Part shown: piece by piece, positions 5,980-28,596 of the stretch
Position numbering within the stretch: position 1 is the stretch's first letter
Layout: every line of letters starts with the position of its first letter
Source: Micrococcus luteus NCTC 2665
Lineage (GTDB): Bacteria > Actinomycetota > Actinomycetes > Actinomycetales > Micrococcaceae
DNA length: 32,000 nt
Direction of reading: 5' to 3'
Assembly (NCBI RefSeq): GCF_000023205.1
Contig: NC_012803.1
Location: 2,469,098-2,501,097 of the forward strand
The notes under the pieces: model-generated
Seen by the model: the letters and a program-made list of their open reading frames with translations, nothing else
The model's database searches: none
What the model was told of the DNA's origin: nothing
Program-made: the position numbers and the translations under genes

Positions 5980-6104
5980 ATCTGCGTGAAAAAGAAACCG
6001 GGGGCTCCCTATTGAGAGCCACGGGGCGTTGAGAACCCCTCCCGGTCGTCAGTTCAGTGTATAGGACACCGAACAGTTGGCACCACCCTATCGCGCCCTA
6101 CACA

Positions 6105-6148
6105 CGATGATGCCCCGCCGTTCGAGTGGAACGGGCGGGGCATCATCG
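6105..6148. terminator. bidirectional intrinsic-terminator-like hairpin between the DUF3800 gene (+) and rplI (-)
   Basis: Perfect 15-bp stem: CGATGATGCCCCGCC (6105-6119) pairs with GGCGGGGCATCATCG (6134-6148), 14-nt loop. It lies 40 nt downstream of the rplI stop. Confidence 0.6.
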
Positions 6149-6187
6149 GGCGGATGACGCGTACTCGACGCGTTCAGAAGCGGATGA

Positions 6188-10421: not shown

Positions 10422-11944
10422 ACCGCGGCCGGCCGGCCTGAGCGCCCCCGGGCCGGGCCGGAGTCCGCGGCGTACGCGCCGGCGAGCGGGTCGGTGTCCG
10501 GGTGGCCGCCGTGGTCGCGCTTCACGAGGTCCTCGGCCGGGTGCAGCATCTCCCACACGACGCGCCCGCACAGCCACAGCACCGCGAGCATGTGCGCGAG
10601 GATCGCGGCCACGTAGACGGAGTCGTCCATGGAGTGCTGCGGCGGGGTCTCGGCCACCCCCTTGGCCAAATACATCCACACGGCGAAGAAGTGCAGCGCC
10701 TCCACCGTCTGCCACACCCAGAAGTCCCGCCACCGCGGCAGGGCGAGCGCCAGGAGCGGGATCAGCCAGACCACGAACTGCGGTGAGTACACCTTGTTGG
10801 TGAGCACGAACGCCGCCACCACCAGGAACGTCAGCTGGGCCAGCCGCGGGGTGTGCCGCACCCGCACGCCGAGCACGAAGATCCCCAGGCAGCACACCGC
10901 GAAGGTCCCGTAGGCCAGCAGGGTCAGGGAGTCCTCCGGCACGAACGCCCACCCGGCCTGCGCGGCGGTCACGTCCCACGCGTGCCACACGCTGGACAGG
11001 CCCGGCCCGCGCTCGCCGGAGAAGGTGAAGAACACGGACCACGCCTGGAAGTTCACGACCATGAGCGGCACGTTGACCGCCGCCCACGCCGCCACCGTGC
11101 CCCCGGCCGCGAGCAGGAACGGCCGCCACCGCCGCGAGCGCACCGCCAGGATCAGCAGCGGCCCCAGGATCAGCAGCGGATACAGCTTCATGGCCGCGCC
11201 GAGGCCGAACAGCACCCCCGCCGTCAGGGACCGGCCGCGCGACCACGCGTACATGCCGCACGCCAGCAGGGCCACGGCCCACAGGTCCCAGTTGATGGTG
11301 CCGGCCAGCACGATCCCCGGGGCCACGGCCACCATGAGCCCGTCCGTCCACCGGCGCCCCGCCATCCGGACGGTCAGCACCGCGACGACGGCCCACAGCA
11401 CCACCACGAACCCGAAGTTCACGAGCCAGAACACCACCGTGCCCTGCTCCGGCGAGAACGGCAGCGCCTGCGTGATCCAGGCCGCCACCGAGCCCACGAC
11501 GGACATCAGCACGGGGTACTCGAACGTGGAGCCCGCCCGGAACGGCGCCCACGGGTCCGCCGCGAACCCGCGCCCGCCGTAGAGCGCGGCCCAGTCCGAA
11601 TAGCAGCCCGCGTAGTAGACGTCCGGGGCGCCCCAGCCGTGCAGCAGGCACGGCGACTTCTGCAGCACGGTCACGACGGCGGCCAGAGCCACCAGCAGCC
11701 CCGTCAGCGCCACGGGCCCGGCCCAGGAGCCGGTCCCCCGTCCGGGGCCGTTCGCCGCGAGGCCGCCGGCGAGCTGGAAGCGTCCGCCGCGCTCGCCGGG
11801 GGCGGGCAGGGTCCCGGACGGTGCGCTGTCAGCGGAACGCCCGGCGGGGACACCCGGGGCGGTCACGGCGTCGCTCGGGGCGCCGTCCGCGGCGTGAGTG
11901 GGCGGCTCGCTGGGGGTCGCGGCGTGCGCGGGGGCCGGTCTCAT
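10412..11944 (-). CDS. GT87/DUF2029-like polytopic membrane glycosyltransferase (Rv0051-like)
   Basis: Multi-pass membrane protein. After a Pro/Ala-rich N-terminus it has the GT-C-like first loop (DVYYAGCYSDWAALY...FEYPVLMSVV). Its position next to ino1 and the rpsF operon mirrors mycobacterial Rv0046c-Rv0056 synteny. The function is an inference. Confidence 0.6.
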   Translation of the reverse strand: MRPAPAHAATPSEPPTHAADGAPSDAVTAPGVPAGRSADSAPSGTLPAPGERGGRFQLAGGLAANGPGRGTGSWAGPVALTGLLVALAAVVTVLQKSPCLLHGWGAPDVYYAGCYSDWAALYGGRGFAADPWAPFRAGSTFEYPVLMSVVGSVAAWITQALPFSPEQGTVVFWLVNFGFVVVLWAVVAVLTVRMAGRRWTDGLMVAVAPGIVLAGTINWDLWAVALLACGMYAWSRGRSLTAGVLFGLGAAMKLYPLLILGPLLILAVRSRRWRPFLLAAGGTVAAWAAVNVPLMVVNFQAWSVFFTFSGERGPGLSSVWHAWDVTAAQAGWAFVPEDSLTLLAYGTFAVCCLGIFVLGVRVRHTPRLAQLTFLVVAAFVLTNKVYSPQFVVWLIPLLALALPRWRDFWVWQTVEALHFFAVWMYLAKGVAETPPQHSMDDSVYVAAILAHMLAVLWLCGRVVWEMLHPAEDLVKRDHGGHPDTDPLAGAYAADSGPARGRSGRPAAVQA

Positions 11945-12112
11945 GCCCCCATCCTAGGAAGCCGCCCGGACACCGGACGGGCGGGGCCGCCGTCGTCGGT
12001 CGTAGACTGGCGGGGTTGATCCCCGGGTGAGCGCCCCGCCGAACGGTGTGGGCCCCCCTGCGCGCGCCGCGTGCCCGCACCCGTTCCGGACAGTCGAGGA
12101 GAGAACCAGACC

Positions 12113-13198
12113 GTGGCCACCAATCCCATCCGCGTCGCCATCGCCGGCGTGGGCAACTGCGCAACATCCCTCATCCAGGGTGTGGAGTACTACCGCGAGG
12201 CGAAGGCCACGGACACGGTCCCAGGCCTGATGCACGTGCAGTTCGGCGACTACCACGTGTCGGACCTCGAGTTCGTGGCCGCGTTCGACGTGGACGCGAA
12301 GAAGGTCGGCCTGGACCTGTCCGAGGCCATCACCGCCTCCGAGAACAACACCATCAAGATCGCGGACGTGCCCCACGCGGACGTCACCGTCCAGCGCGGC
12401 CCCACCCTGGACGGCCTCGGCAAGTACTACGCCGAGACCATCGAGGAGTCGGAGGCCGAGCCCGTGGACGTGGCCCAGGCCCTCCGCGACGCGGAGGTGG
12501 ACGTGCTGGTCTGCTACCTGCCCGTCGGCTCGCAGCGGGCCACAGAGCACTACGCCCAGGCCGCGATCGACGCCGGCGTCGCGTTCGTGAACGCCCTGCC
12601 CGTGTTCATCGCCGGCACCCCGGAGTGGGCCGAGAAGTTCACCGCCGCGGGTGTGCCGATCGTGGGCGACGACATCAAGTCCCAGATCGGCGCCACCATC
12701 ACCCACCGCGTGATGGCCAAGCTGTTCGAGGACCGCGGCGTCACCCTGGACCGCACCTACCAGCTCAACGTGGGCGGCAACATGGACTTCAAGAACATGC
12801 TCGAGCGTGAGCGCCTGGAGTCCAAGAAGATCTCCAAGACGCAGGCCGTCACCTCCAACACCTCCGCGCAGCTGGGCGAGAAGGATGTGCACATCGGCCC
12901 GTCCGACTACGTGGCCTGGCTCGACGACCGCAAGTGGGCGTTCGTGCGCCTCGAGGGCCGCAACTTCGGCGACGCCCCCGTCTCGCTCGAGTACAAGCTC
13001 GAGGTGTGGGACTCCCCCAACTCGGCCGGCGTGATCATCGACGCCGTGCGCGCCGCGAAGATCGCCCTGGACCGCGGCATCGGCGGGCCGATCCTCTCGG
13101 CCTCGTCCTACTTCATGAAGTCCCCGCCCGTGCAGCACAACGACGACGCGGCGCACGAGCTCGTGGAGGCCTTCATCCGCGGCGACATCGAGCGCTAA
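12113..13198 (+). CDS. ino1: myo-inositol-1-phosphate synthase
   Basis: [24 protein letters not shown]...[60 protein letters not shown] is a canonical actinobacterial Ino1. I prefer the GTG at 12113 (GAGGAGA about 10 nt upstream) over the track's GTG at 12071. Confidence 0.92.
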
Positions 13199-13224
13199 CC
13201 CGCCCGGTCCCCCGCAGACCGCGC

Positions 13225-13273
13225 ACGACGCCGGCCCGTCACCTTCCCCGTGGAGGTGACGGGCCGGCGTCGT
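13225..13273. terminator. bidirectional terminator-like hairpin between ino1 (+) and the SGNH ORF (-)
   Basis: Perfect 19-bp stem: ACGACGCCGGCCCGTCACC (13225-13243) pairs with GGTGACGGGCCGGCGTCGT (13255-13273), 11-nt loop. Confidence 0.65.
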
Positions 13274-13305
13274 CGTGGGGGCGCGTGCCGCCCCGGCCAC
13301 CGCGC

Positions 13306-15443
13306 TCAGCGCCGCACGCCGAGCCGGTCCTCGATGGTGAGCCGGACGAGCTGGGCGTACATGGCCTGGCCGTCGGCGCGGGGGTGCACGCCGTCGGCGG
13401 AGAAGTCCGTGACGTGCTGCTTCGCCACGGCGTCCCAGTCCGCCAGGACGATCCGATCCGGGTGCGCCGTGGCCTGCGCCTCCATCTGCCTCTGCACGTC
13501 GGCGATCCAGTCCATCGGGCCGTGCGGCACCACGAGCACGAGCAGCCGGTCCTCGCCGACGGCCGCCAGGATCTTCTCCCAGTCGCCCCGATGGGTGGTG
13601 CCGTTGGCGCCCAGGGCCACCACGACGACGTCGCTCAGCTGGCCGTCCGCCTTGAGCTTCTCGATCTCGTCCGCGGCGTCCCAGATCTGGTAGCCCACCT
13701 CGGCCTCGAGCAGCATCCCGGGCAGCTGCTCCATGAGCTGGGGCGCGGCCGAGAGCGAGACGGAGTCGCCGATCAGGGTGACGTCCGGGCCGAGCTCGGA
13801 CGGCGGCAGGGCCGCGGTGAGCTGCTCTTTGGAGTACGTGGGGCGCGCGACGGCCGGGTCGCCGAGCCCGAGCCCGGACGGCTCGGCGGACGATCCGGGC
13901 GAGGGCGTCGCGCCCGCGGAGCCCTCCGCGTCCCCCGGGGCGGGTGAGCCGGGCGAGGCCGACGCCTCGGCCTCGGCCCGCTTCGACTGCTCCGCCGCCC
14001 GGGACTCGCGGGCCGCCTGCTGCGCCGCCTCGGCGGCCTTGAGGGACTCCTCCGCCTGGGCGATGTCCTGCTCGAGCTGGGTCTGCGCGGGCGAGTGCAC
14101 CACGGCGGCCATGGCCGCCGCGGGCACGGCCACGAGCCCCAGCACCGTGGCGGCGGCCGCGAACCGGCCGATCGGCCCGGCCCCGCCCGTGAACGCCCGC
14201 CGCGCGGCCGCGCCCCAGCGGCCGAAGGCGCCCCTGAACCCCTCGTGCAGGATGGGCTCCTCGATCAGCCGGGTGCTCAGGTCGGCGAGCAGGGCGGTCA
14301 GCAGCAGGATCGCTCCCGCGGCCACGGGTTCGGCCCACCCGGGGCGTCCACGGGCACCATCACGCGCATGATCACGAGCAGCGGCCAGTGCCACAGGTAC
14401 GCGGCGTAGGAGCGGCGCCCCCACCAGCGCAGGAACCCGTTGCCCAGCACGCGCGAGAGCGAGTCGCGCCGGTCACCCTGCACCACGTGCCAGACGATGA
14501 ACGCGACGACGGCGGACAGGCCCGCCAGCACCCCGCGGTACGTGCTCGCGTGGCCGCCGTCGACCAGGGCGAAGCCCGCCGCGAGCACCGCGACGGCGCC
14601 CCACGCGACGGCCACCCGCGTGGCCGAGGTCCGCGGCTCGGGGCCGCCGTGCTCGGGCCGGGGCACGTGGGCCAGACCGATCGCCACGCACGCGCCGAAC
14701 AGCAGGCCGAAGGCGTGGGTGTCCGTGCCGAAGTAGAGGCGGGCCTGCTCGAACCCGTGCCACGAGCCCCAGGCCATCCACGCCGCGGAGGCCACGGCCG
14801 CGACCGCGACCGCGAGGATGCGGCGTCGGTCCGCCACCCGCCCCGAGTTCACCGTGCTGCGCGGCGGCCAGGTGAGCAGGAGCAGCCCCCAGAGGAGCAG
14901 GGGCCAGAGGATGTAGAACTGCTCCTCGATCGCCAGGGACCACAGGTGCTCGAACAGAGGCGGCGAGGCGCGGTTGAAGTAGTCCCCGCCCTCGAGGATC
15001 ATCACCCAGTTGCTGGTGTAGGTCAGGGCGCCGAACCATTGGCGGCCCAGGCCCGCGGGGAACTCGTCCACCGCCAGCCACGCGAGCGCGGTGGTGCCCA
15101 CGAGCGCCATCAGCATGGCCGGGATGAGGCGTCGGACGCGCTTCATCCAGAAGGTGCCCAGCGCCACGCCCCGGCCCGCGTCCACACCGCGGACCAGGCC
15201 GGTGGTGATGAGGAAGCCGGAGAGCACGAAGAACATGTCCACGCCCACGAACCCGCCGCGCAGGAAGGTGGGCCAGGCGTGGAAGACGAGCACGGCGAGC
15301 ACCGCGATCCCCCGCAGCCCGTCGAGGGCGGTCACCCGGCCGGGGCCGCGACTGACCCGCGTGCCGACCTTGACGGCGGGCGCGCCGTCCTGGGGCGACA
15401 GGGCATGGCGGGGCACGGGCGCGGTGCGCTGGTCGGAACTCAC
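13306..15443 (-). pseudogene. acyltransferase-3 (OafA/YrhL-like) plus SGNH-domain O-acyltransferase, interrupted by a frameshift (ORFs 14298..15443 and 13306..14424)
   Basis: The upstream ORF carries AT3 motifs (LDGLRGIAVLAVLVFH, VDMFFVLSGFLIT, HLWSLAIEEQFY, YLWHWPLL) but stops 20 codons later. The last AT3 helix plus the conserved ...LSTRLIEEPI motif and the SGNH domain (VTLIGDSVS...ALGANG...DGVHP) continue in the -1 frame. The switch maps to CCCCGGGT on the minus strand (plus-strand 14337-14344). Confidence 0.75.
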
Positions 15444-15557
15444 AGCGGTCGATCATCCCATCCGGACCTGGATGGGCCAAAGCCTCCGGCTATCCCCACC
15501 CGCCCCACCGCGTTGGGGGCGGTTTCCGGCGGTATTCCGCTCCCAAAGCACCGGTTT

Positions 15558-15579
15558 CCGCCCCGGAAGCGGGGGGCGG
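15558..15579 (-). terminator. weak terminator-like hairpin just downstream of the Rho_N-domain gene
   Basis: 7-bp GC stem: CCGCCCC (15558-15564) pairs with GGGGCGG (15573-15579), 8-nt loop. No U-tract. Confidence 0.25.
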
Positions 15580-15586
15580 GCGCCGG

Positions 15587-15886
15587 TCAGTGGTTCCGCA
15601 GCGCCTCGATGAGCTCGTCCTTGGTCATGGTGGAGCGGCCCTCGATGTCGAGCTCGCGGGCCCGCTTCTCGAGCTCGTCCTTGGTCCAGTCCTCGTAGGA
15701 GCCGGCCTCGCCGCCGCGCTCGGCGACCTCGTCCCGGCCGTCCCGGGCGGACGCGTTGGCGATCCGCGCGGCCTTCTCCTCGCTCGCGCCCTCGCGGCGC
15801 AGCGCCTCGTAGACCTCGGGGTCCTTGATGCTGGACGTGCCGGGGCCCATGGGGGCACCGTTCTTCTCGGTCTTCTTCTCAGCCAT
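15587..15886 (-). CDS. Rho_N (SAP-like) domain-containing small acidic protein
   Basis: The C-terminal WTKDELEKRARELDIEGRSTMTKDELIEALRNH matches the Rho termination factor N-terminal helix-extended-helix motif. The N-terminal IKDPEVYEALRREGASEEKAARIANA is seen in actinobacterial proteins of this size. ATG at 15886. Confidence 0.7.
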   Translation of the reverse strand: MAEKKTEKNGAPMGPGTSSIKDPEVYEALRREGASEEKAARIANASARDGRDEVAERGGEAGSYEDWTKDELEKRARELDIEGRSTMTKDELIEALRNH

Positions 15887-15938
15887 GCGGCCAGTGTGGT
15901 CCCGGCCCGACGACGGGTGGAAGGCCCGCCGCGCCGCC

Positions 15939-17390
15939 TCAGCCCTGCTGGGCCTCCGGCTGCTCGGCCCACCAGCGCCGCAGCTCCGCCTCGGCCTCGG
16001 CCTGCTCGTGCGGGCCCTCGTCGAGACGCCACTCGAGCAGGTGGCTGTACGCCCGCCCCACCACCGGGCCCGGGCGGATCCCCAGCAGCGCCATGATCTG
16101 CTGCCCGTCCAGATCCGGCCGCACGGCGGCGAGCTCCTCGGCCTCGGCGATCTCGGCGATGCGCCGCTCGAGGTCGTCGTACGCGTGGGCCAGCCGCTCG
16201 GCCTTGCGCCGGTTGCGGGTGGTCACGTCCGAGCGGGTCAGCGCGTGCAGGCGGGGCAGCAGGTCGCCGGCGTCGTGGGCGTACCGGCGGACGGCGGAGT
16301 CGGTCCAGCCGGCGTCGCCGTAGCCGTAGAACCGCATGTGCAGCTCCACGAGGCGGGCCACCGCCTTGATGGTGTCGTTGTCGAACTTCAGGGCGCGCAG
16401 CCGCTTGCGGACGAGCTTGGCGCCCACGGTCTCGTGGTGCCGGAAGGTGACGGCCCCGCCCTTCTCGAAGCGGCGCGTGGCCGGCTTGCCGACGTCGTGC
16501 AGCAGCGCCGCCAGGCGCAGCACGGGGTCGGGGGTCGACGGCGCGTACTCGCCCTCCAGCTCCATGGCCTGCTCCAGCACGGTCAGGGAGTGGGCGTAGA
16601 CGTCCTTGTGGCGGTGGTGCTCGTCCGACTCGAGCTGCAGGGCGGGCAGCTCGGGCAGGATGTGGTCGGCCAGGCCGGTGCGCACGAGCAGGTCGAGGCC
16701 GGCGCGCGGGTGCGCACCGCACACGAGCTTGACGAGCTCCTCGCGGACGCGTTCGGCGGAGATGATCGTGATCCGCTCGGCCATCGCGGTCATGGCCTGC
16801 TCCACCTCGGGGGCCACGGCGAAGCCGAGCTGGGAGGCGAAGCGGGCGGCGCGCATCATGCGCAGCGGGTCGTCGGAGAAGGAGTCCTCAGGGGTGCCGG
16901 GGGTGCGCAGCACGCCGGCGTGCAGGTCCCGCATGCCGCCGAAGGGGTCCACGAGCTCGAGGGCGGGCAGGCGCAGGGCCATGGCGTTGACGGTGAAGTC
17001 GCGGCGCAGCAGGTCGTCCTCGAGGCTGTCGCCGAAGGCCACCTGCGGCTTGCGGCTGGCCGGGTCGTACTGCTCGGCCCGGTAGGTGGTGACCTCGAGC
17101 TGCCAGCCGGCCTTGCGGAAGCCGATGGTCCCGAACCGCCGCCCCACGTCCCACGTGGCGTCCGCCCAGCCGGCGCCGACGGCCTCGGACGCGTCCGGGT
17201 CGGCGTCCGTGGTGAAGTCCAGGTCCGGCGACGGCCGTCCCAGGAAGAGGTCGCGGACCGGGCCGCCCACCAGGGAGAGCTCGTGGCCGGCGGCCTCGAA
17301 CCTCCGCCCCAGCTCCACGACGACGGCGGGCAGGGTGGCGTCCGCGGGGAAGCCGGGGGGCAGCGCGTGGGTGGCGGTGGTCAGATCCAT
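15939..17390 (-). CDS. cca: CCA tRNA nucleotidyltransferase (PcnA-like, with HD domain)
   Basis: LSLVGGPVRDLFLGRPSPDLDFTT, RDFTVNAMA, DPLRMMRAARF, and HD-domain motifs (HHRHKDVYAHS..LLHDVGKP). I prefer the ATG at 17390 (MDLTTATH) over the track's GTG at 17423. Confidence 0.9.
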   Translation of the reverse strand: MDLTTATHALPPGFPADATLPAVVVELGRRFEAAGHELSLVGGPVRDLFLGRPSPDLDFTTDADPDASEAVGAGWADATWDVGRRFGTIGFRKAGWQLEVTTYRAEQYDPASRKPQVAFGDSLEDDLLRRDFTVNAMALRLPALELVDPFGGMRDLHAGVLRTPGTPEDSFSDDPLRMMRAARFASQLGFAVAPEVEQAMTAMAERITIISAERVREELVKLVCGAHPRAGLDLLVRTGLADHILPELPALQLESDEHHRHKDVYAHSLTVLEQAMELEGEYAPSTPDPVLRLAALLHDVGKPATRRFEKGGAVTFRHHETVGAKLVRKRLRALKFDNDTIKAVARLVELHMRFYGYGDAGWTDSAVRRYAHDAGDLLPRLHALTRSDVTTRNRRKAERLAHAYDDLERRIAEIAEAEELAAVRPDLDGQQIMALLGIRPGPVVGRAYSHLLEWRLDEGPHEQAEAEAELRRWWAEQPEAQQG

Positions 17391-17455
17391 GATGCCTACA
17401 AGGGTGCCAGACGGTCCCGGCACGGGCCCGCGCGGGCCGGGCTAGAGTTGACGGC

Positions 17456-18067
17456 ATGACCCGCCCCGATCCCTCCGCGCACCGGGGCGCCCCCCTGCCC
17501 TCCGCGCTGGGGGCGTGGCGTCGCCGGCCGCAGCCGCCTCTGCGCCCCGTCACCTCGGCCCCCGCGGGACCCCGTTCCGCCGCAGCCGCCTCCCTGCCCA
17601 CGGTGGAGGAGGTCTCCGCCGGCGGCGTCATCGTCCGCGAGCATGACGGCGGCCTCGAGGTGGCCGTGATCGCCCGCTACAACCGCGGTGGCCGGCTCGA
17701 GTGGTGCCTGCCCAAGGGCCATCCCGAGGGCGAGGAGGACCACCGGCAGGCGGCCGTGCGCGAGGTGGAGGAGGAGACCGGGATCGCCGGCCACATCCTC
17801 GAGCCGCTCGGCGCGATCGACTACTGGTTCACAGTCGCCCGGCACCGCGTCCACAAGACCGTGCACCACTTCCTGCTGCGCGCCACGGGCGGCGAGCTGA
17901 CCACGGAGAACGACCCGGACCACGAGGCCGTGGACGTCGCATGGGTGCGCCTCGAGGACGTCGCGCGCCGCCTCTCCTTCGCCAACGAGCGCCGGATCGT
18001 CGACCTGGCCCGCCAGGTGGTCGACCAGCACTTCCCCCCGGGCGGTGCCCGGGGCCCCCGCCCCTGA
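17456..18067 (+). CDS. NUDIX hydrolase (MutT4-like)
   Basis: Nudix box LPKGHPEGEEDHRQAAVREVEEETGI. Divergent from cca, as with Rv3907c/Rv3908 in mycobacteria. Confidence 0.88.
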   Translation: MTRPDPSAHRGAPLPSALGAWRRRPQPPLRPVTSAPAGPRSAAAASLPTVEEVSAGGVIVREHDGGLEVAVIARYNRGGRLEWCLPKGHPEGEEDHRQAAVREVEEETGIAGHILEPLGAIDYWFTVARHRVHKTVHHFLLRATGGELTTENDPDHEAVDVAWVRLEDVARRLSFANERRIVDLARQVVDQHFPPGGARGPRP

Positions 18068-18113
18068 TCCACCGCCCCCGGCACGGGGCCTTCCGACCAC
18101 GATTGGGTGACCC

Positions 18114-19958
18114 TTGAGCAGCAGACCCGCCCCGCGCCGAGCGCAGGACCCCGCCCACGCCGGCGTCGCCGACGAGGAGCCGACGACGACGGACCCCGCC
18201 CCCGCCACGGATCCGGCCGCCGTGGACCCCGCGGACGAGACCCCCGAGGGCGAGCGCCGCGCCGGCCGGTCCACCGCGATCATGGCCTCCGGCACGCTCC
18301 TCTCCCGCGTGCTGGGCCTCGTCCGTGCGACGCTGGTGACGGTGGCGATCGGCCTGTCCGCGGACATGGCCGACATCTTCGAGATCGCCAACTCCCTGCC
18401 GAACGTGATCTACCTGCTCCTGGTGGGCGGCGTGTTCAACGTCGTGCTCGTGCCGCAGCTGATCAAGCACGCCCGCGACGCCGACCGGGGCGCGGACTAC
18501 ACCTCCCGCCTGATGACGCTCGGCACGCTCGTGATGCTCGCCGGCACGGTGGTGGTCATGCTGGCGGCAGCCCCGCTCATGACGGCCCTGACCCGCGGCT
18601 GGTCGCCGGAGAAGCTCGAGATGGCCACCGTGTTCGCCCTGTGGTGTCTGCCCCAGGTGTTCTTCTACGGCATGTACGCGCTGGTGGGGCAGGTGCTCAA
18701 CGCCAACGGACGCTTCGGCGCCTACATGTGGGCGCCGGTGCTGAACAACGTCGTCGCGATCGGCGCGATCGTGCTGTACCTGGGCATGTTCGGGGCGTAC
18801 CGGGCCGGGGACGACCTCGCTGGGTGGACGAGCGCACAGACGGTCGTGCTGGCCGGCGGCCACACCCTGGGCGTCGTGCTGCAGGCCGTGATCCTCTTCC
18901 TGCCGCTGCGCGGGCTCGGCCTGGGTCTGCGCCCGCGGTTCGGCTGGAAGGGCATCGGCCTGCGGGACACCGGCCGGATCGCCGGGTACACCCTGATCAC
19001 GATGGTCGCCACGAACGTGGTGCTCCTGCTGTGCCAGCGGTACGTCACCTCCGCCACGGAGGCCCGCGACCGCGGCGAGCTGCGCATCCCCGGCACGGAG
19101 ACCTGGAGCGCCGAGATGGCGCAGGCGGCCATCCCCGGTGTGGCCGCGTACAACATGGCGATGCTGATGGCCGTGCTGCCCCATTCGGTGTTCGTGCTCT
19201 CCCTGGCCACCGTGCTCTTCAACCGGCTGGCCCGCGCCATGGGCCGCCAGGACATGTCCGCGGTGCGGCGCACGACGGCGCAGGGTCTGCGCGCGTTCAC
19301 CGTGCCGCTGATGTTCTGCCTCGCCGGCGTGGTGGTCCTGGCGGGCCCCCTGGGCCGCGTCTTCGGCTCGACGGCCGAGACGGCGATGGTGGCCGGCGTC
19401 GCGGTGGGCTCGGTCCTGCTCGCGCTGGCGCTGTCCATCCCGTTCCGCTCGGGCTCCTTCTACCTGCTGCGCGTGTTCTACGCCGCCGAGGACGCCAAGG
19501 TGCCGATGGTGGTCCAGGTCAGCGGCTCGCTCCTGATGCTGCTGCTCTCGTGGGCGGGCGCGATGCTGCTGCCGCTGTGGTCCATGGCCCTGTGGGTCGC
19601 GGTCGCCTCGTCCGTCTCGTACGTGTACCAGTTCGTCCTGACCCATGTGCTCACCGTGCGCCGGTTCGGGGACTACGGCCTCGCATCCGTGCTGCGTGCC
19701 CACGTCCAGACCGGCCTGGCCGCGCTGGCCGCGGCGGCCGCGGGCGTCGTCGTCGTGTGGCTGCTGGGCGGGTACACCGGCGGGTTCGCGTGGAACTCCA
19801 TCGGGACGGCGCTGCTCACGTGCGCGGTGGCGGCCGTGGCGATGGGTCCGGTGTACCTGATGGTGCTGCGGGCCATGCGGTTCCCCGAGCTGGACGACGC
19901 CCTCCGGCCGCTCGTCGCCCGCGTGCCGGCGCTGGGTCGTCTGCTGCGCGTCGGCTGA
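18114..19958 (+). CDS. murJ: lipid II flippase MurJ/MviN
   Basis: SGTLLSRVLGLVRATLVTVAIG..ADIFEIANSLPNVIYLLLVGGVFNVVLVPQL and about 14 TM helices. The TTG at 18114 gives a 56-aa acidic/Pro-rich N-terminal extension; the ATG at 18282 (MASGTLL) is an alternative start. Confidence 0.88.
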   Translation: MSSRPAPRRAQDPAHAGVADEEPTTTDPAPATDPAAVDPADETPEGERRAGRSTAIMASGTLLSRVLGLVRATLVTVAIGLSADMADIFEIANSLPNVIYLLLVGGVFNVVLVPQLIKHARDADRGADYTSRLMTLGTLVMLAGTVVVMLAAAPLMTALTRGWSPEKLEMATVFALWCLPQVFFYGMYALVGQVLNANGRFGAYMWAPVLNNVVAIGAIVLYLGMFGAYRAGDDLAGWTSAQTVVLAGGHTLGVVLQAVILFLPLRGLGLGLRPRFGWKGIGLRDTGRIAGYTLITMVATNVVLLLCQRYVTSATEARDRGELRIPGTETWSAEMAQAAIPGVAAYNMAMLMAVLPHSVFVLSLATVLFNRLARAMGRQDMSAVRRTTAQGLRAFTVPLMFCLAGVVVLAGPLGRVFGSTAETAMVAGVAVGSVLLALALSIPFRSGSFYLLRVFYAAEDAKVPMVVQVSGSLLMLLLSWAGAMLLPLWSMALWVAVASSVSYVYQFVLTHVLTVRRFGDYGLASVLRAHVQTGLAALAAAAAGVVVVWLLGGYTGGFAWNSIGTALLTCAVAAVAMGPVYLMVLRAMRFPELDDALRPLVARVPALGRLLRVG

Positions 19959-20023: not shown

Positions 20024-22069
20024 GTGCCCCAGCCCATCGCCGTCGGCGCCGTCCTGGGCGGCCGCTATCGCATCACCCAGCACGTGGTGACGTCCGCGGA
20101 CCAGGACATGGTGTTCCTGGGCACGGACCAGGTGCTCAACCGCCGCGTCACCGTGCTCGTGGCCTCACGTGAGAACGCCACGCAGGTGGCCTCGTCCGCG
20201 CGGGAGCTGGCCACGGGCGAGCGCACCGACGACGTGCAGGTGCTCGACCTGGGGCTGTCCGAGGGCCGCACGTACCTGATCGCCGGCGGGGACCCCGACC
20301 CGGACGTCCTGCTGGGTCTGGCGTACCCGCAGGAGCTGTACGTGGAGCCGTTCCAGACGGACAGCCTCGGCTCCGAGCTGTTCGGCGAGTCGCGGACCGG
20401 AGACCCCCACGCCTACGACGACGACGAGGCGTACTACACCGACCTCGACCGCCGGCTCCGCGCGGACGAGGACGAGGCCCAGCGTCGTCCCGGGTTCCTG
20501 AACCGCCTCTCCGAGCGCCTCGCCGAGCGGGTCCGTCCCTCCGACGGCACCGCGGCGAAGGCGGCCGCCGGGGCGTCGGCCCTGGCCGCGGCGGACGCCG
20601 CCACCCGGAAGCAGCAGGAGGAGCGCGAGCGGGCGGAGCGGGAGGCCGCCGAGCGCGCAGAACGCGAGCGCAAGGAGGCCGAGGAGAAGGCCCGCGCCGA
20701 ACGGGAGGCCGCCGAGCGGGTCGAGCGGGAGCGCAAGGAAGCCGCCGAACGCGCAGAACGCGAACGTCGGGAGGCGGAGGAGCGTGCCGAGGAGGAGCGC
20801 CGCGCCGAGGCCGAGCGCGCGCGTCGCCAGGCGGAGCAGGAGGCGGAGGAGCGGGCCGCGCGCGAGCGGGAGGCCGAGCAGGCCCGGCTGGCCGCGGAGC
20901 GGGAGGAGGCCGAGCGCCGCGAGCTCGAGCGCCGGGCCGAGGCCCGCCGTCGTGCCGAGGAGGAGCGGGCCCGGGAGGCCGCGGAGCGCGAGGCTGAGAA
21001 GCGCGCAGCCCAGGAACGCGAGGCCGCGGAGCGCGAGGCTGAGAAGCGCGAGGCCCAGGCGGGCACCGCCGCGCTTCCGGCCGTGGCGGCCGAGAAGACC
21101 GACGCACCGGAGCCGGCCGCCCCGGACACCGAGGCTATCCCCGTGCGTCGCCAGCGTCCCGTCCCGCGCCGCGTGCTGGAGACCGAGTCCGCGCCGGCGG
21201 TCGACGAGAAGTCCCGCGGCACGGCGGCGCCGGTGGCCGCCGGTGCCGCGGCCATGCGCGCTGCGGATGCCGCGACCGCGGGGTCGACGGCCGCCGCCGC
21301 GGCTCCGGACGCATCGACCGCCGCGTCCGCCCCGCCGGCCGGGGGCGGCGAGGGCGCCACGGTGGCCGATCCAGGCGATGGGGACAGCCGGAAGAGCGGC
21401 GGCCCGCTGGCCCTGCTCCTCGTGCTCGGCCTGCTCGCCGCACTCGTCGTGGGCGGGGTGCTGCTGGCCCAGAACCTGCGCGGCGGGCCGGCCCCGCAGG
21501 CCGCGGCCGCGTCGTCCGAGTCTGCGTCGTCCGGGTCCGCATCGGACACCCCGTCGCCGTCGGAGAGCACCAGCCCCTCCCCCACCCCGACCAGCGAGAG
21601 CGCCGCGGCCGCCCCGCAGCCCGTCCAGGCCCTGCGCTCGGTGCCGGACCTGCCGGAGCACGAGGCCGAGCACGACGCGGACCTGCCCAACCTCATCGAC
21701 GGCGACCCCACCACCGTGTGGCGCACCTTCGCCTACGCACGGCCGAACTTCGGCGGCTATGTGGAGAGCATGAACCTCGTGGTCCAGCTTGAGGACCGCA
21801 CCGAGGTGAACGAGGTGACCCTGCAGAGCACGGGGGCCACCGGTGGCGCCTGGTTCGCCTACATCGCCGACTCCCCCGAGGGCGCGAACGCCCAGGAGAT
21901 CGGCAACGGCACCTTCGACCAGGACACCGTCTCCATCCCCGTGCCGTTCGAGGGCACCGAGGCCGAGGCCGAGTACGTGATCGTCAGCCTCACCTCGCTG
22001 CCCCAGCTGGAGGGCACGACGTCGGACCTCCCGTTCGGCCTGCGCCTCGGCGAGATCGCCGTCCGCTGA
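20024..22069 (+). CDS. MurJ-associated pseudokinase-like single-pass membrane protein with an extracellular discoidin/CBM-like domain
   Basis: Only the 3-prime part of track ORF 18107..22069 is real. GTG at 20024 with AGGAG at 20011-20015. The N-terminus has a kinase N-lobe-like sequence (LGGRYRITQHV..FLGTDQVLNRRVTVLV) without an obvious catalytic loop. Next come about 150 aa of E/R/K/A, a TM helix (LALLLVLGLLAALVVGGVLLA), an S/P/T linker, and a C-terminal LIDGDPTTVWRT... domain. This corresponds to the C-terminal half of mycobacterial MviN (Rv3910). Confidence 0.75.
   Translation: MPQPIAVGAVLGGRYRITQHVVTSADQDMVFLGTDQVLNRRVTVLVASRENATQVASSARELATGERTDDVQVLDLGLSEGRTYLIAGGDPDPDVLLGLAYPQELYVEPFQTDSLGSELFGESRTGDPHAYDDDEAYYTDLDRRLRADEDEAQRRPGFLNRLSERLAERVRPSDGTAAKAAAGASALAAADAATRKQQEERERAEREAAERAERERKEAEEKARAEREAAERVERERKEAAERAERERREAEERAEEERRAEAERARRQAEQEAEERAAREREAEQARLAAEREEAERRELERRAEARRRAEEERAREAAEREAEKRAAQEREAAEREAEKREAQAGTAALPAVAAEKTDAPEPAAPDTEAIPVRRQRPVPRRVLETESAPAVDEKSRGTAAPVAAGAAAMRAADAATAGSTAAAAAPDASTAASAPPAGGGEGATVADPGDGDSRKSGGPLALLLVLGLLAALVVGGVLLAQNLRGGPAPQAAAASSESASSGSASDTPSPSESTSPSPTPTSESAAAAPQPVQALRSVPDLPEHEAEHDADLPNLIDGDPTTVWRTFAYARPNFGGYVESMNLVVQLEDRTEVNEVTLQSTGATGGAWFAYIADSPEGANAQEIGNGTFDQDTVSIPVPFEGTEAEAEYVIVSLTSLPQLEGTTSDLPFGLRLGEIAVR
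20606..21057 (+). repeat. in-frame imperfect tandem repeats encoding an E/R/K/A-only segment
   Basis: 31-bp perfect repeat GAGGCCGCGGAGCGCGAGGCTGAGAAGCGCG at 20975-21005 and 21020-21050 (45-bp period). CGGGAGGCCGCCGAGCG occurs at 20639-20655 and 20702-20718 (63-bp period). Protein: RKQQEERERAEREAAERAERERKEAEEKARAEREAAERVERERKEAAERAERERREAEERAEEERR... Confidence 0.9.
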
Positions 22070-23756: not shown

Positions 23757-25130
23757 TCAGGACTTCTTGCCCTTCCCCTTGCCGTCCTGACCGCCCTGGA
23801 TGAGGTCCATGATGCGGTTCAGGTCCTCTACGGTGGTGAAGTCGATGGCGATGCGGCCCTTGCGCGCGCCGAGGGTGATCTTCACGGCGGTGTCCAGGCG
23901 GCTGGTGAGCGCGGTGGCGTAGTGGTCCAGGCGCTCGTGGCGGGCGTCGTCCGTGCTGCGCCGCGGCGTGCGGCCCGGCCGGAGCCCGCCCTGCAGCTGC
24001 GCGACCGCCTCCTCCGTGGACCGGACGGACAAGCCCTCCGACTGGATCCGCTGCGCCAGACGCTCCATGTCCGACGGGTCCGTGAGACCGAGCAGCGCAC
24101 GCGCATGGCCGGCCGAGAGCGTGCCGGCGGCCACGCGGCGCTGCACGAGGGGCGGCAGCTTGAGCAGCCGCAGCGTGTTGGAGATCTGCGGACGAGAGCG
24201 GCCGATGCGCTGGGACAGCTCCTCCTGCGTGCAGGCGAAGTCCTCCATGAGCTGCTGGTAGGCGGCGGCCTCTTCGAGCGGGTTCAGCTGGGAGCGGTGC
24301 AGGTTCTCCAGCAGAGCATCCCGCAGGAGGTCCTGGTCCGGGGTCTGGCGGACGATCGCCGGGATGGTGTCCAGGCCGGCCTTCTGGGTGGCGCGCCACC
24401 GGCGCTCGCCCATGATCAGCTCATAGGGGGTGGGGCCGTCCACCTCGCGCACGACGATCGGCTGCAGGATGCCGACCTCGCGGATCGAGGTGACCAGTTC
24501 CGCCATGTGGTCCTCGTCGAACACCTCACGCGGCTGCCGCGGGTTGGGGTGGATGTCCCCCACCGGGATCTCCCGCAGGACCGCGATGTCCGCGGACACG
24601 GTCCCCTCGGTCGCGGCGGACTCAACGCTCGAGTCCCCCGGTTCGTTCCTCGACGACGTCGCGGAGGTGGCACGCTTGCTGGGCGCCTTCACCGTCGGCA
24701 TGGCCGGACGCCCCTTGGTCGGCCGCGCCGCGGGTGCATCCTCGGAGTCTGCGGAGAAGAACACGTCGACGGGACGCTGCGCGGGTCGCGAGGCACGCTT
24801 CGACGAGGTGGGCCCTGCCTTCGTGGCGGACGTGGCGTTCCTGCCAGTCGCAGCCGTTGATTTCCCGGCCTGTGTCGTTCGGCCCGCGGTCTTCCGCTGC
24901 GAGGCCGACGGGGCGGGCTCGTTGGACTCCCCTGGCGTCTCGGTCGTCGCGGTGCTCCGCGTCGATGTCGTGGTGGCCTCCGCTGCCGCGGCAGCCTTCG
25001 GGCCGCTCTTCACCGGCACCGCAGAGTCCTTCGGGGAGGTGGCCTCGGCGTTCTCTTCCGGGGCTTCTACAGTGCTCTGGATCAGGGCGCCGAGGCCTCG
25101 CCCCAGGCCTCCTCGACGGCTCGTCTTCAA
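23757..25130 (-). CDS. parB: chromosome partitioning protein ParB (CTP-dependent parS-binding clamp) with a long low-complexity insertion
   Basis: TTG start at 25130 with AGGAGG 5 nt upstream. The N-terminal RRGGLGRGLGALI peptide is followed by about 165 aa rich in S/T/A/P/K. Then come PNPRQPREVFDEDHMAELVTSIREVGILQPIVV, the GERRWRA box, an HTH (TQEELSQRIGRSRPQISNTLRLLKLP), and a C-terminal dimerisation domain with a Lys-rich tail (GKGKGKKS). Confidence 0.93.
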   Translation of the reverse strand: MKTSRRGGLGRGLGALIQSTVEAPEENAEATSPKDSAVPVKSGPKAAAAAEATTTSTRSTATTETPGESNEPAPSASQRKTAGRTTQAGKSTAATGRNATSATKAGPTSSKRASRPAQRPVDVFFSADSEDAPAARPTKGRPAMPTVKAPSKRATSATSSRNEPGDSSVESAATEGTVSADIAVLREIPVGDIHPNPRQPREVFDEDHMAELVTSIREVGILQPIVVREVDGPTPYELIMGERRWRATQKAGLDTIPAIVRQTPDQDLLRDALLENLHRSQLNPLEEAAAYQQLMEDFACTQEELSQRIGRSRPQISNTLRLLKLPPLVQRRVAAGTLSAGHARALLGLTDPSDMERLAQRIQSEGLSVRSTEEAVAQLQGGLRPGRTPRRSTDDARHERLDHYATALTSRLDTAVKITLGARKGRIAIDFTTVEDLNRIMDLIQGGQDGKGKGKKS

Positions 25131-25372
25131 CGGGTCCTCCTGCAGTGAGTGGGTCTGGGATCAGTGTAGGTGAGCGGCCTGGTCTCGATGGTCCCGGGCG
25201 GCGGGAAGACACTTCTCAAGGTGCTCTGGCCCTGACCGCCGGGGGGCGCGCGAGGGCCTGACACGTGCAAGGGGCGCGGCGAGGTTCGGGCCCCGGTTCT
25301 GGGGTGAGACGTCCGTATTGGGCCCGGACGGCAGGAGGTGGGCGCGCGGACAGCACCTGCCGCGAGCGTGAG

Positions 25373-25388
25373 TGTTTCACGTGGAACA
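25373..25388. promoter_or_regulatory. parS site 1 (TGTTTCACGTGGAACA, 1 mismatch in the 14-bp core)
   Basis: Match to the chromosomal parS consensus tGTTTCACGTGAAACa. Confidence 0.7.
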
Positions 25389-25463
25389 CTCCGAGTGGGG
25401 GCGCTTCGGAAGGATGCCGCTGCAATCCCCAAGACCTCCTCGTGTTCCCTCTCGAGGTTCACT

Positions 25464-25479
25464 CGTTTCACATGAAACG
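25464..25479. promoter_or_regulatory. parS site 2 (CGTTTCACATGAAACG, 1 mismatch in the core)
   Basis: Match to the parS consensus. The central CG is replaced by CA. Confidence 0.65.
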
Positions 25480-25777
25480 CGAGCCCGCGTCGACGAGCGG
25501 ACGGTATCAGAATCACGGCTGCTCGGTTTGTTTTCCATGTGCTCCCCGGCCGATCAGCTCCCGTGCGGACGATACTCAGATTGCTGGTTACCCGCATGAT
25601 GATGTGCCTCATCTTGTGTGAAATGCCGGACCAGCAACGAAGCACTCGTCTCACTCCCCCGCGGTGCGAGGTGAACACTCGAATCAGCGAACGGATGAGC
25701 TCGGCTACTCGTCGCTTCGCCGTCAGTGCTTCCTCGCACCCGCGCAGCTGACGAATTGAACGCTGCTTGGCCATCCG

Positions 25778-25793
25778 CGTTTCACGTGAAACA
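25778..25793. promoter_or_regulatory. parS site 3 (CGTTTCACGTGAAACA, perfect 14-bp core)
   Basis: Perfect GTTTCACGTGAAAC palindrome. Confidence 0.88.
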
Positions 25794-25971
25794 CGGACGA
25801 ATCTGTCATCCAAGTACGACATGAGTTCGTGGTGGGCCACGTGCTCGCTCACCCGCGAGTCAGTGCCACCTTCCTGCTTCATTCTCGGTCAGCTCGCTCC
25901 CGGCACGGAACGTGTGCTCCCTGGATCGCCCGAGGTGGCGACCTCGCGGCACGGCCCTTTGTCCCGGAGCT

Positions 25972-25987
25972 CGTTTCACGTGAAACG
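25972..25987. promoter_or_regulatory. parS site 4 (CGTTTCACGTGAAACG, perfect 16-bp palindrome)
   Basis: Perfect GTTTCACGTGAAAC palindrome. Confidence 0.88.
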
Positions 25988-26155
25988 TATCGTTCGAAGA
26001 TTCCACCGCGCGCTCATGCCGTGGAAGCCCGCCCCCAAGCGGGTCGCATCCCGAGGCTGGCGTGCGCAGGGGCCACTATATCTTGAGAGGTTCAGTCTCG
26101 CCGCGTCGCTGATAAAACTGGCTCGGATCCAGTGAGCGCCGACCACCAGTCGTTC

Positions 26156-26171
26156 GGTTTCACGTGAAACG
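26156..26171. promoter_or_regulatory. parS site 5 (GGTTTCACGTGAAACG, perfect 14-bp core)
   Basis: Perfect GTTTCACGTGAAAC palindrome. Confidence 0.88.
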
Positions 26172-26367
26172 TGCTGGGAGGGAACGCCGGGTCGCGGGTT
26201 CGGTGCCGGGGCAGCGTGCACCCACTTCCGCCATCGACGGTATTGCTCGATGTGGTCGCCGATGTCACGGGCGGCAGTACAGTGACGCGGCTGGCCCTCC
26301 ACCCGACCTACCGAATCCATTCGTCCTGTCAGCTGAGGCCGCCCATCAAAGTCTCAGGACCGCCTCG

Positions 26368-26376
26368 TGTGGAAAC
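26368..26376 (-). promoter_or_regulatory. weak DnaA-box-like 9-mer (GTTTCCACA on the minus strand)
   Basis: TGTGGAAAC on the plus strand. Two mismatches to the actinobacterial TTGTCCACA and one mismatch to the relaxed TTWTNCACA. Confidence 0.25.
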
Positions 26377-26446
26377 TGGGTCTTCATGACGTCCATCCGC
26401 GGACAGCTGCGGTCAGGAACCGACGCTAGGGGAGCGCGGACCACCG

Positions 26447-26462
26447 TGTTTCACGTGAAACC
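26447..26462. promoter_or_regulatory. parS site 6 (TGTTTCACGTGAAACC, perfect 14-bp core)
   Basis: Perfect GTTTCACGTGAAAC palindrome. Confidence 0.88.
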
Positions 26463-26691
26463 CCCGGTGACCGGCCGATTACTCGACGCCCTGGTTCCCA
26501 CGTCGCTGCAAGCGACAGAACCACACGGCCCGCCCCATCCCGCACGGAGCCGCCGCGGGCTCCCCGGGGGGCCTCTACCGCAGTCACCATTGACACGCCG
26601 TCCCCGTGCCCAGCCGTCAGACGCCACAGGAGACTGAGCAGGACTCATCAACACCGCAGAGACATCTACCGCCGCACACCTTAGACGTCCC

Positions 26692-26713
26692 TTGTCCACA
26701 GATGTTGTCCACA
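26692..26713 (+). promoter_or_regulatory. two perfect tandem DnaA boxes (TTGTCCACA at 26692-26700 and 26705-26713, same orientation)
   Basis: cccTTGTCCACAgatgTTGTCCACAtatcaacatcaacg. Both 9-mers equal the actinobacterial DnaA-box consensus. They are followed by the most AT-rich patch of the region; line 26701-26760 is about 52% G+C by hand count. Confidence 0.75.
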
Positions 26714-27468
26714 TATCAACATCAACGTTCGCTGGTGACCACGTCAAGACGCCTGTTGGCCAGTTCAACCACTTGCCTCTGTATACATTGGGGGCACACG
26801 ACCGCTCTTCCTCACTGGAGGCTCTCTTTCTCCGCACACAGGAATGCACAGCAGAACTGTCCTTCAGGCGCCGCCAATCGGCCCCTCCAACTCAGACGAA
26901 TCACAGCAGACCCCCTCGCCGCTGACGTCCCCTCTCGCACACGCTGACTGACAGACCGGCCGCGCACCCCCGCGACGGCACTCTGACTCGTGCTCCGCTC
27001 TGGCCCCCGATTCCCTGCACGTCACCGACGGCGAGGAGGTCTGACATGGGGGAGGGGGCACCCAGCCACGGCACCCGGCCTGCTCGACGGCTGCATTCTC
27101 GGGGCTGCCACGAGCCCGCCTGGGGCGGCAGGGACGGGCCATGCCCTGCACGTCCGCAGCCGCCGGTTAGGACGTTCCCTACGAACCGCGCAGCTCCCGA
27201 GGCGCACCTCAACGCACGGTGCACCGCCGGCCGGCCATCACAGCCGCGGTCCCGCCCCAGGGCGAAACCGTCCTCCCCGTGACTTCGTGCGTCGCCGCCC
27301 CCGGCTGCCCCCACGCCTGGCGACAGATGCGCCCCGCCCACAACGGAGCGGCAGAGGGCTCGGCCCAGGGGAGGAGAGGGGAGCGGGACAGACGGGAGCG
27401 GTCCACTACGGGCACCCCTCCCCATCGTCCCATCGCGGCGGCACGACGCTCGCACCCTCGGAGGGGGT

Positions 27469-27484
27469 CGTTTCACGTGAAACA
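27469..27484. promoter_or_regulatory. parS site 7 (CGTTTCACGTGAAACA, perfect 14-bp core)
   Basis: Perfect GTTTCACGTGAAAC palindrome, 165 bp downstream of the parA stop. Confidence 0.88.
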
Positions 27485-27552: not shown

Positions 27553-27599
27553 ACGACGAAGCCCGCCGGGGGATCGCTCCCTCCGGCGGGCTTCGTCGT
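27553..27599 (-). terminator. terminator-like hairpin downstream of parA
   Basis: 17-bp stem: ACGACGAAGCCCGCCGG (27553-27569) pairs with CCGGCGGGCTTCGTCGT (27583-27599). It lies 50 nt after the parA stop (27649). No U-tract, as is common in high-GC actinobacteria. Confidence 0.6.
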
Positions 27600-27648: not shown

Positions 27649-28596
27649 TCAGCCCTTCAGGGCCGTCGGCGCACCGCGGCCGGCGATCTCCGCGGCCGCC
27701 TCCCGGTACGCCACGGCGCCGGCCGAGGCCGGGTCGTAGGTCAGCACCGTCTGCTGATAGCTGGGGGCCTCGGAGATGCGGACGTTGCGGGGGATCGCGG
27801 TGTTCAGCAGCTGCTCCGGGAAGTGCGTCCGGACCTCCTCCGCCACCTGCACGGCGAGGTTGGTCCGCGCGTCGAACATCGTCAGCAGGATGGTGCTCAC
27901 CTTGAGGCGCGGGTTCAGGTGTTTCTGGATCATCTGCACGTTCTTGAGCAGCTGCGAGAGGCCCTCGAGGGCGTAGTACTCGGCCTGGATCGGGATGAGC
28001 ACCTCCTCAGCCGCCACGAACGCGTTGACCGTCAGCAGGCCCAGGGACGGCGGGCAGTCGATGAACACGTAGTCCAGCCGCTCCTGCCCGACCTCCTCGC
28101 GCCAGGCGGTGTACGCCTCGAGCGCCCGCGACAGTCGCTGTTCGCGGGCCACCAGCGAGACCAGCTCGATCTCGGCACCGGCCAGGTCGATCGTCGCGGG
28201 CACCACCTGCAGGCCGTCCACGTCCGGGGCGTCCTGCACGACGTCCTGGATCTCCATCTCGCCCAGGAGCACGTCGTACACGGAGGCCACGTCTCCGGTG
28301 TGGGGGATGTTCAACGCGGTGGATGCATTGCCCTGCGGGTCGATGTCCACCACCATCACCCGCATGCCCGCGCGGGCGAGGGCCGCGGCCAGGTTGACCG
28401 TCGTCGTCGTCTTGCCGACGCCGCCCTTCTGGTTGGACGTCGTGAATACGCGGGTGCGGTCGGGGCGCGTCAGACGGCGACGCTGGAGCCGCGCGGGCTC
28501 CTCGGCGTCGGCGCCGCCCTTCTCGGCGGTCCGGCCGGTCCACTTCTGGCGCAGGGCCCTCCAGGCCCCACCCCGGCTCTCCTGCTCCTGCGCCAT
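27649..28596 (-). CDS. parA: chromosome partitioning ATPase ParA/Soj
   Basis: Deviant Walker A SNQKGGVGKTTTTVNLA, plus VMVVDIDPQGNAS and YVFIDCPPSLGLLT. ATG at 28596 with AGGAGG upstream. About 50-aa basic N-terminal extension, typical of actinobacterial ParA. Confidence 0.95.
   Translation of the reverse strand: MAQEQESRGGAWRALRQKWTGRTAEKGGADAEEPARLQRRRLTRPDRTRVFTTSNQKGGVGKTTTTVNLAAALARAGMRVMVVDIDPQGNASTALNIPHTGDVASVYDVLLGEMEIQDVVQDAPDVDGLQVVPATIDLAGAEIELVSLVAREQRLSRALEAYTAWREEVGQERLDYVFIDCPPSLGLLTVNAFVAAEEVLIPIQAEYYALEGLSQLLKNVQMIQKHLNPRLKVSTILLTMFDARTNLAVQVAEEVRTHFPEQLLNTAIPRNVRISEAPSYQQTVLTYDPASAGAVAYREAAAEIAGRGAPTALKG

Follow-up and report, generated by a model that had tools for sequence, protein, structure and literature searches.

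A segment of 32,000 nucleotides of the Micrococcus luteus NCTC 2665 chromosome (NC_012803.1, positions 2,469,098 to 2,501,097 of the forward strand), here called the window, carries the partition genes parA and parB on its minus strand, separated by a gene-free island with seven copies of a palindrome that corresponds to the chromosomal ParB-binding site, parS. We have high confidence that this island is the chromosomal centromere, an array for the loading of ParB bound to cytidine triphosphate (CTP), which splits parA from parB. The guanine-plus-cytosine (GC) content of the island, 66.1%, equals that of both oriC spacers of the same genome. The features of the locus, from parA to parB, are:

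27649..28596, minus strand: parA, 315 amino acids, Walker-type partition ATPase (Pfam AAA_31, 2.7e-57, plus CbiA/ParA families)
27553..27599, minus strand: terminator-like hairpin without a U-tract, ~50 nt 3' of the parA stop codon
25131..27648, no strand: candidate centromere island, non-coding, 2518 bp, 66% GC compared with ~72% for the window
27470..27483, no strand: parS1, perfect GTTTCACGTGAAAC, 166 bp 3' of the parA stop codon
26692..26721, plus strand: conserved element of 30 bp that includes a tandem pair of perfect DnaA boxes, TTGTCCACA (26692–26700 and 26705–26713)
26448..26461, no strand: parS2, perfect
26157..26170, no strand: parS3, perfect
25973..25986, no strand: parS4, perfect
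25779..25792, no strand: parS5, perfect
25465..25478, no strand: parS6, one mismatch, GTTTCACATGAAAC
25374..25387, no strand: parS7, one mismatch, GTTTCACGTGGAAC (GTTCCACGTGAAAC on the opposite strand)
25163..25168, minus strand: putative −10 of the parB promoter, TACACT, of the form TAnnnT
23757..25141, minus strand: parB (23757–25130, 457 amino acids, TTG start at 25130) with its ribosome-binding site, AGGAGGA, at 25135–25141

The parS sites and their flanking genes

When the 32 kb were rescanned for the 14-mer, five perfect copies and two with a single mismatch were found, exactly where the original prediction had placed them and with the same centre-to-centre spacings of 91, 314, 194, 184, 291 and 1022 bp. 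The rest of the window contained no further match with up to two mismatches, and a tolerance of three mismatches added a single weak parS-like match, at 19783. In 100 dinucleotide-preserving shuffles, the expectation was 0.01 sites per window and none of the shuffles reached seven, in agreement with the earlier claim that the recurrence is not due to chance. The sites match the parS consensus, tGTTtCACGTGAAACa, either perfectly or with one mismatch. The outermost positions of the 16-mer are variable in the window, T..A being the pair seen most often when the related loci and the window are taken together. The same combined set includes 93 one-mismatch sites, among which the variant found at parS7 is the commonest family-wide (59 sites), while the one found at parS6 accounts for six. 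The parS7 variant matches the first parS to be described, inside spo0J of Bacillus subtilis. We also considered whether the 14-mers belong to a longer repeat unit or a mobile element, which was ruled out because the flanks of the sites differ and the palindrome alone recurs.

The genes on either side encode a cognate pair of chromosomal-type partition proteins. The parA product is identical to that of the corresponding gene call in M. luteus NCTC 2665. At the N-terminus of ParB is the sequence GLGRGLGALI, which we take to be the ParA-activating peptide. Between this peptide and the CTP-binding domain there is an unusually long linker of ~170 amino acids, rich in Ala, Thr, Ser, Pro and Lys (residues ~12–180; 24590–25100, minus strand), a stretch without DNA-level conservation among Micrococcus species. 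ParB contains the Pfam domains ParB_N, HTH_ParB and ParB_C, carries the CTP-binding motif GERRWRA, and is similar to Spo0J of B. subtilis (6sdk; E = 1.8e-53).

Gene calls and coding tests bore out the placement of the array in a non-coding island between parA and parB, 5' of parB. Third-position GC was flat in the open reading frames (ORFs) of the island, at 0.53–0.82, whereas the window's 24 codon-biased ORFs all reached 0.85 or more. None of the island ORFs of at least 40 amino acids had a tblastn match in 80 related loci, and the ten longest matched no Pfam family at E values up to 0.1. No RNA genes were found by Rfam at gathering thresholds in the whole window, by Rfam at E values up to 1 in the island, or by ARAGORN; the sole Rfam match in the island was a sub-threshold one to P37, on the hairpin 3' of parA. 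An ORF of 251 amino acids (25127–25882, minus strand) that is annotated in NCTC 2665 and overlaps parS5 to parS7 was not accepted as a gene, because its codon-position GC is flat and it has no homologue in the other Micrococcus loci. It also lacks a Pfam match and is not called in two other M. luteus assemblies; the annotated gene is probably an artefact.

The two edges of the island carry possible signals for transcription. The hairpin after parA has 20-nt arms that are 95% complementary, and its RNA fold has a predicted energy of −61.7 kcal/mol (z = −7.75 versus shuffles). At the parB edge, positions 25065–25172 form the only island-edge stretch that can be aligned among Micrococcus species, and this stretch holds the TACACT hexamer, the AGGAGGA and the TTG start. 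The AGGAGGA is invariant, and the hexamer ~20 nt 5' of it aligns as TAGACT, TACACT, TAGAAT or TACAAT in eight of eight Micrococcus loci. From this comparative alignment, which is how the hexamer was identified, and not from a promoter scan, we infer that it acts as the −10 of a parB promoter. Likewise, parA and parB appear to be separate transcription units here.

The window ends inside the rpmH–dnaA spacer. Over 14,352 bp it is 100% identical to M. luteus NCTC 2665 LS483396.1. The start of the island is 4.3 kb from the rpmH–dnaA spacer and 6.2 kb from the dnaA–dnaN spacer. The array is origin-proximal, and both nearby spacers hold DnaA-box clusters. All seven parS sites of the 38.6 kb that were scanned (the window plus the L081 extension) are inside the island. 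The identification of the palindromes as parS is well supported by the consensus, the canonical ParA and ParB encoded on either side, the proximity to the origin and the presence of an array in every related genome examined, and here too our analysis sides with the original prediction.

Related loci in the Micrococcaceae

A ParB scan of the GTDB species representatives yielded 80 Micrococcaceae loci for comparison. Clusters of the parS motif were found next to parAB in 79 of these, the other one (L009) being cut off just 5' of parB, and the motif is nearly absent from the genes that flank the islands. In all 58 loci where it could be measured, a parS-bearing, gene-free island of several kb has been kept. 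Within the species, the comparison of site number between related strains that had been suggested earlier showed the same seven sites in three M. luteus strains.

Both genes are present in five Micrococcus/Citricoccus loci (L001, L002, L005, L007 and L008) and in one Micrococcaceae metagenome-assembled genome (L010). In these six loci, the core matches of ParA and ParB are 1.5–4.7 kb apart with 4–9 parS sites between them, the parB–trxA spacer is short (87–275 bp), and no parS was found elsewhere in ~21 kb, except for one site in L010 just 5' of the parA match. A parS 77–306 bp 3' of the end of the parA match, comparable to parS1, is also present in L001, L005, L007 and L008. The DNA of the parA–parB spacer is unalignable among Micrococcus species, the parA and parB genes themselves being 80–85% identical, so that conserved sites stand in diverging surroundings. 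The retention of 4–9 parS sites in a spacer that cannot be aligned therefore points to selection on the sites and not on the sequence around them.

A different arrangement is seen in Arthrobacter, Paenarthrobacter, Pseudarthrobacter and Specibacter (L011–L080), where parA and parB are adjacent. In this Arthrobacter group it is the parB–trxA spacer that is long, measuring 4–8.7 kb and holding 3–12 parS sites (roughly locus coordinates 11000–19000). No codon-biased ORF of at least 100 amino acids was present in this spacer in the two delimitable loci that were checked (L049 and L027). One extra parS lies ~105 bp 5' of the conserved ParA core, and three loci (L011, L014 and L077) have parS sites on both sides of parB. 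The parB–trxA islands of Arthrobacter, Paenarthrobacter and Pseudarthrobacter thus resemble the M. luteus island in family, in their multi-kb size, in the lack of codon-biased ORFs, in their multiple parS sites and in having DnaA-box clusters in a single orientation, but differ in their position 3' of parB, in the adjacency of parA and parB, in the extra parS 5' of parA, in their length and in a wider spacing of the sites (median 724 bp compared with 280 bp).

Judged by these loci, the island is a trait of the family, placed differently with respect to parB in different lineages, and the splitting of parA from parB by the island is a trait of the Micrococcus/Citricoccus lineage; the original prediction had not noticed this. 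In the searchable literature we found no description of the Micrococcaceae islands, the parB–trxA islands of the Arthrobacter group included, no account of parA and parB being separated by a centromere island, and no report of chromosomal parS for Micrococcus or Arthrobacter; the phrase 'between parA and parB' gave matches only on protein interactions.

Multi-site, origin-proximal centromeres beside parAB are textbook knowledge, and denser ones are known. Myxococcus xanthus has 24 parS sites, most of them within ~3 kb, 5' of parAB and ~30 kb from oriC. As in M. luteus, this is a dense array of canonical sites beside parAB and near the origin, and the M. xanthus array gives one ParB peak. It differs in being denser and in standing 5' of an intact parAB operon, whereas the M. 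luteus array has seven sites in 2.1 kb inside the operon, 4.3–6.2 kb from the oriC spacers. Given this M. xanthus array, the compaction of one site per 300 bp in M. luteus, in which the original prediction had seen part of the novelty, is not new. In Corynebacterium glutamicum, the other multi-site case that it had named, parS1–10 are contained in 35 kb, nine of them intergenic, 73 kb from oriC. C. glutamicum belongs to the same phylum (Actinobacteria) and likewise has several consensus sites, mostly intergenic, near oriC; the C. glutamicum sites have been verified as ParB loading sites by chromatin immunoprecipitation (ChIP). They are spread among genes, whereas those found in M. luteus are all in one gene-free block of 2.5 kb.

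DnaA boxes in the island

A conserved pair of DnaA boxes, which the original prediction had missed, lies in the gap of 1022 bp that separates parS1 from parS2. The two boxes, 13 bp apart from start to start, are the only perfect DnaA boxes in the 32 kb. The 30-bp element to which they belong occurs once, and in the same orientation, in the parS-bearing DNA 5' of parB in seven of seven other Micrococcus loci, where it reads TGTTGATATGTGGACAAC-nnC-TGTGGAyrA, at these positions:

L001, 8471–8500
L002, 8151–8180
L003, 711–740
L004, 647–676
L005, 6839–6868
L006, 241–270
L008, 5702–5731

In the window and in L002, L005 and L008, the element is located 144–250 bp 5' of parS2; in L001 it is ~560 bp 5' of that site. 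It is the only conserved block other than parS in the aligned Micrococcus islands, and in a k-mer survey of 12 islands, all recurring words that did not belong to parS came from it. Boxes of the same type with up to one mismatch number 10 in the dnaA–dnaN spacer and 4 in the rpmH–dnaA spacer and have the same consensus as the island pair; the island thus holds at least two close boxes that match the organism's own oriC consensus.

The boxes are also enriched in the family as a whole. In 60 islands from 58 loci, 91 perfect TGTGGA[CT]AA boxes were observed where 3.65 were expected from an analytic first-order Markov model calculated per island, a ~25-fold excess, although these counts are not independent events, because the loci come from related species. 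The orientation of the boxes over the 60 islands was 89:2. The DNA flanking the islands held 4 boxes in 571 kb, and the density in the islands was 41 times that of the flanking DNA. Both the conservation and the enrichment go beyond what base composition would give, and the conservation of the boxes in otherwise unalignable surroundings argues for selection.

In the Arthrobacter group, the boxes form a mid-island module consisting of 3–4 phased boxes (GTGGATAnnnnTGTGGATAACnnTGTGGATAA), ~100 bp, a parS site, ~200 bp and a second tandem box cluster, with all boxes in one orientation. The module was located in the following loci and in six other loci of the group:

L049, 13629–14261
L028, 13257–13950
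L032, 13240–13872
L033, 14089–14739

No perfect box was found in L007, L010, L077 and many Specibacter-type loci, which have nevertheless kept parS.

A second origin, or one part of a split oriC, was considered for the M. luteus element and found no support: there are only two boxes, the sequence after them (GGGACGTCTAAGGTGTGCGG...) has no trinucleotide repeats of the DnaA-trio type, and no distinct AT-rich unwinding stretch follows, and for these reasons the element was not read as an origin. The box element is itself the lowest-GC 40-mer of the island (42.5% GC); the test for AT-richness is a weak one, because the genome is 72% GC and the dnaA–dnaN spacer is no more AT-rich. The box pair probably also places the replication initiator on the centromere, which is the least certain part of our interpretation.

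In Caulobacter crescentus, DnaA binds at the centromere (Mera et al. 2014; reviewed in PMC6399470). The two systems are alike in having DnaA boxes within the parS region near the origin, tying the initiator to segregation; they differ in that binding and function are experimental in Caulobacter and the evidence here is sequence conservation, and they are unrelated in lineage and box layout. In B. subtilis, origin-proximal intergenic DnaA-box clusters restrain initiation and have a genetic link to spo0J (PMC3245932). They resemble the present case in being clusters of consensus boxes that are intergenic, are situated outside oriC and have a genetic tie to Spo0J/ParB. By comparison, Micrococcus has only two boxes, and Arthrobacter two groups of ~2–4 boxes each. 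The B. subtilis clusters are not known to lie within a parS array. Transcription of gidAB–parAB in Pseudomonas aeruginosa has been reported to be under DnaA control.

In the window as a whole, the minus strand carries yidD, yidC, a gene for an R3H/Jag protein, rsmG and parA, followed by the island and parB. Beyond parB are the convergent trxA and trxB and then murJ and the usual actinobacterial origin-proximal genes. An ORF of 681 amino acids between murJ and trxB (20024–22069, plus strand) has 76–80% GC and a strong AT skew; it matches no Pfam family, but three M. luteus assemblies annotate it as a gene. GC is also low (61–65%) in a second stretch, which extends over 5000–6600, around a 611-bp gap between a major facilitator superfamily transporter gene and rplI, and holds two one-mismatch DnaA-box-like 9-mers, at 6312 and 6526.

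Proposed centromere function and its alternatives

If the island is the centromere, its function can be proposed from the established ParABS mechanism, from which loading, sliding and the stimulation of ParA are inferred, the sites, proteins, position and conservation being sequence-based. Each palindrome would be bound by a ParB dimer through its helix-turn-helix domain; ParB would then take up CTP through its GERRxR motif, close as a clamp and slide onto the neighbouring DNA, so that the island and its neighbours would become a single ParB-coated partition complex. The GLGRGLGALI peptide would stimulate nucleoid-bound ParA, and the duplicated origin regions would be pulled apart. Since parA appears to end at its own hairpin and parB to start from a separate, conserved −10 at the opposite end of the island, the array is suggested to lie in a region of little or no transcription, where clamps could load and spread with few collisions. 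As for the two DnaA boxes between parS1 and parS2, they could make segregation responsive to the state of initiation, or could titrate DnaA.

Several points weigh against this interpretation. The idea of a low-transcription platform draws on one hairpin and one −10 motif, and a sigma-70 consensus promoter scan of the island gave no matches. The parS scan covered 38.6 kb of a 2.5-Mb genome, and the searchable literature yielded no binding or ChIP data for Micrococcus or Arthrobacter and no genetic data for M. luteus. Finally, one parS suffices for segregation in C. glutamicum and P. aeruginosa, whereas this array has seven.

One alternative is that the array is mainly an operator: ParB spreading over the island would repress the parB promoter, and segregation would need a single site. 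We consider this unlikely, but it is not without support. There is a conserved −10 at the edge of the island, and in six of the seven other Micrococcus loci (L002–L006 and L008) a parS lies about 35–60 bp 5' of it. Moreover, P. aeruginosa ParB represses promoters that adjoin the intergenic parS3 and parS4 (PMC7022226). Autoregulation of parB, which had been proposed from the outset, is weakly placed in this strain, where the nearest parS is ~205 bp 5' of the −10. The aligned promoter-proximal position in the window (25195–25225, minus strand; GCACCTTGAGAAGTGTC) is no longer parS-like, and the promoter-proximal site has decayed in NCTC 2665. Seven sites over 2.1 kb also far exceed what an operator needs, and the island of the Arthrobacter group cannot be a parB operator, because it is located downstream of parB. 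In B. subtilis, loss of Spo0J brought no change in how genes beside parS are expressed. parB may nevertheless be autoregulated.

Another alternative, which we judge quite improbable, is that the island serves mainly in replication control, either as a cluster that titrates or positions DnaA or as the distal part of a split origin, with the parS sites being secondary. The status of the tandem boxes as the one block besides parS that the Micrococcus islands conserve, the ~25-fold enrichment of boxes and one-sided orientation over the 60 islands, and the phased triple boxes that flank parS in the Arthrobacter islands are all consistent with such a role, as are the B. subtilis clusters and the DnaA-bound Caulobacter centromere. 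However, the two boxes of the M. luteus island compare with 10 and 4 in the two oriC spacers, the loci named above that have no perfect box keep their parS sites, and neither DnaA-trio repeats nor a separate AT-rich unwinding stretch follows the boxes. Everywhere, parS sites are more numerous than boxes.

It is more improbable still that the island is a neutral leftover of decayed genes or an old insertion, in which parS sites merely persist or arise and whose position has no function. Such an origin would fit the complete turnover of sequence between congeneric species, the variation in site number (4–9) and island length (1.5–4.7 kb), and the 251-residue ORF present in one annotation. Yet no island ORF has codon bias or a homologue, the host genome is small, and the gene-free parS island is kept in every measurable Micrococcaceae locus while the DNA between the sites changes, as expected if both the sites and the spacer itself are under selection. 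The last alternative, that the 14-mers have nothing to do with ParB and recur by chance or as a dispersed repeat of a mobile or repetitive extragenic palindrome-like kind, can practically be dismissed, since nothing speaks for it beyond the sites being short palindromes, and it is contradicted by the shuffle expectation, by the lack of a longer unit common to the surroundings of the sites and by the near confinement of the motif to the vicinity of parAB in the related loci.

The centromere interpretation can be extended, much more tentatively, to the family. Micrococcaceae may keep a fast-evolving, gene-free centromere island of 1.5–8.7 kb that is selected only for parS and for oriented, phased DnaA boxes; DnaA might assemble there and couple the state of initiation to ParB loading or to origin segregation, as an actinobacterial counterpart of the link in Caulobacter, and in Micrococcus the island might have moved into the parAB operon, leaving parA and parB to be expressed separately. 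We regard this wider hypothesis as possible but doubtful in its entirety.

As a parS cluster, the array adds little to what is known; the placement within the operon and the embedded DnaA-box module appear to be modestly new variations on a well-known theme. The locus offers a natural case of a parAB operon split by the centromere, so that the levels of ParA and ParB could be set independently. Across the family, the centromere takes up several kb of otherwise drifting DNA, a natural experiment on the cis requirements of the centromere in which the elements that survive the drift are parS and DnaA boxes. In addition, M. luteus combines a coccoid shape and a small genome with a complete ParABS system, and segregation in such cells has received little study. 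If DnaA does bind the island, the link between replication and segregation would become directly testable in Actinobacteria.

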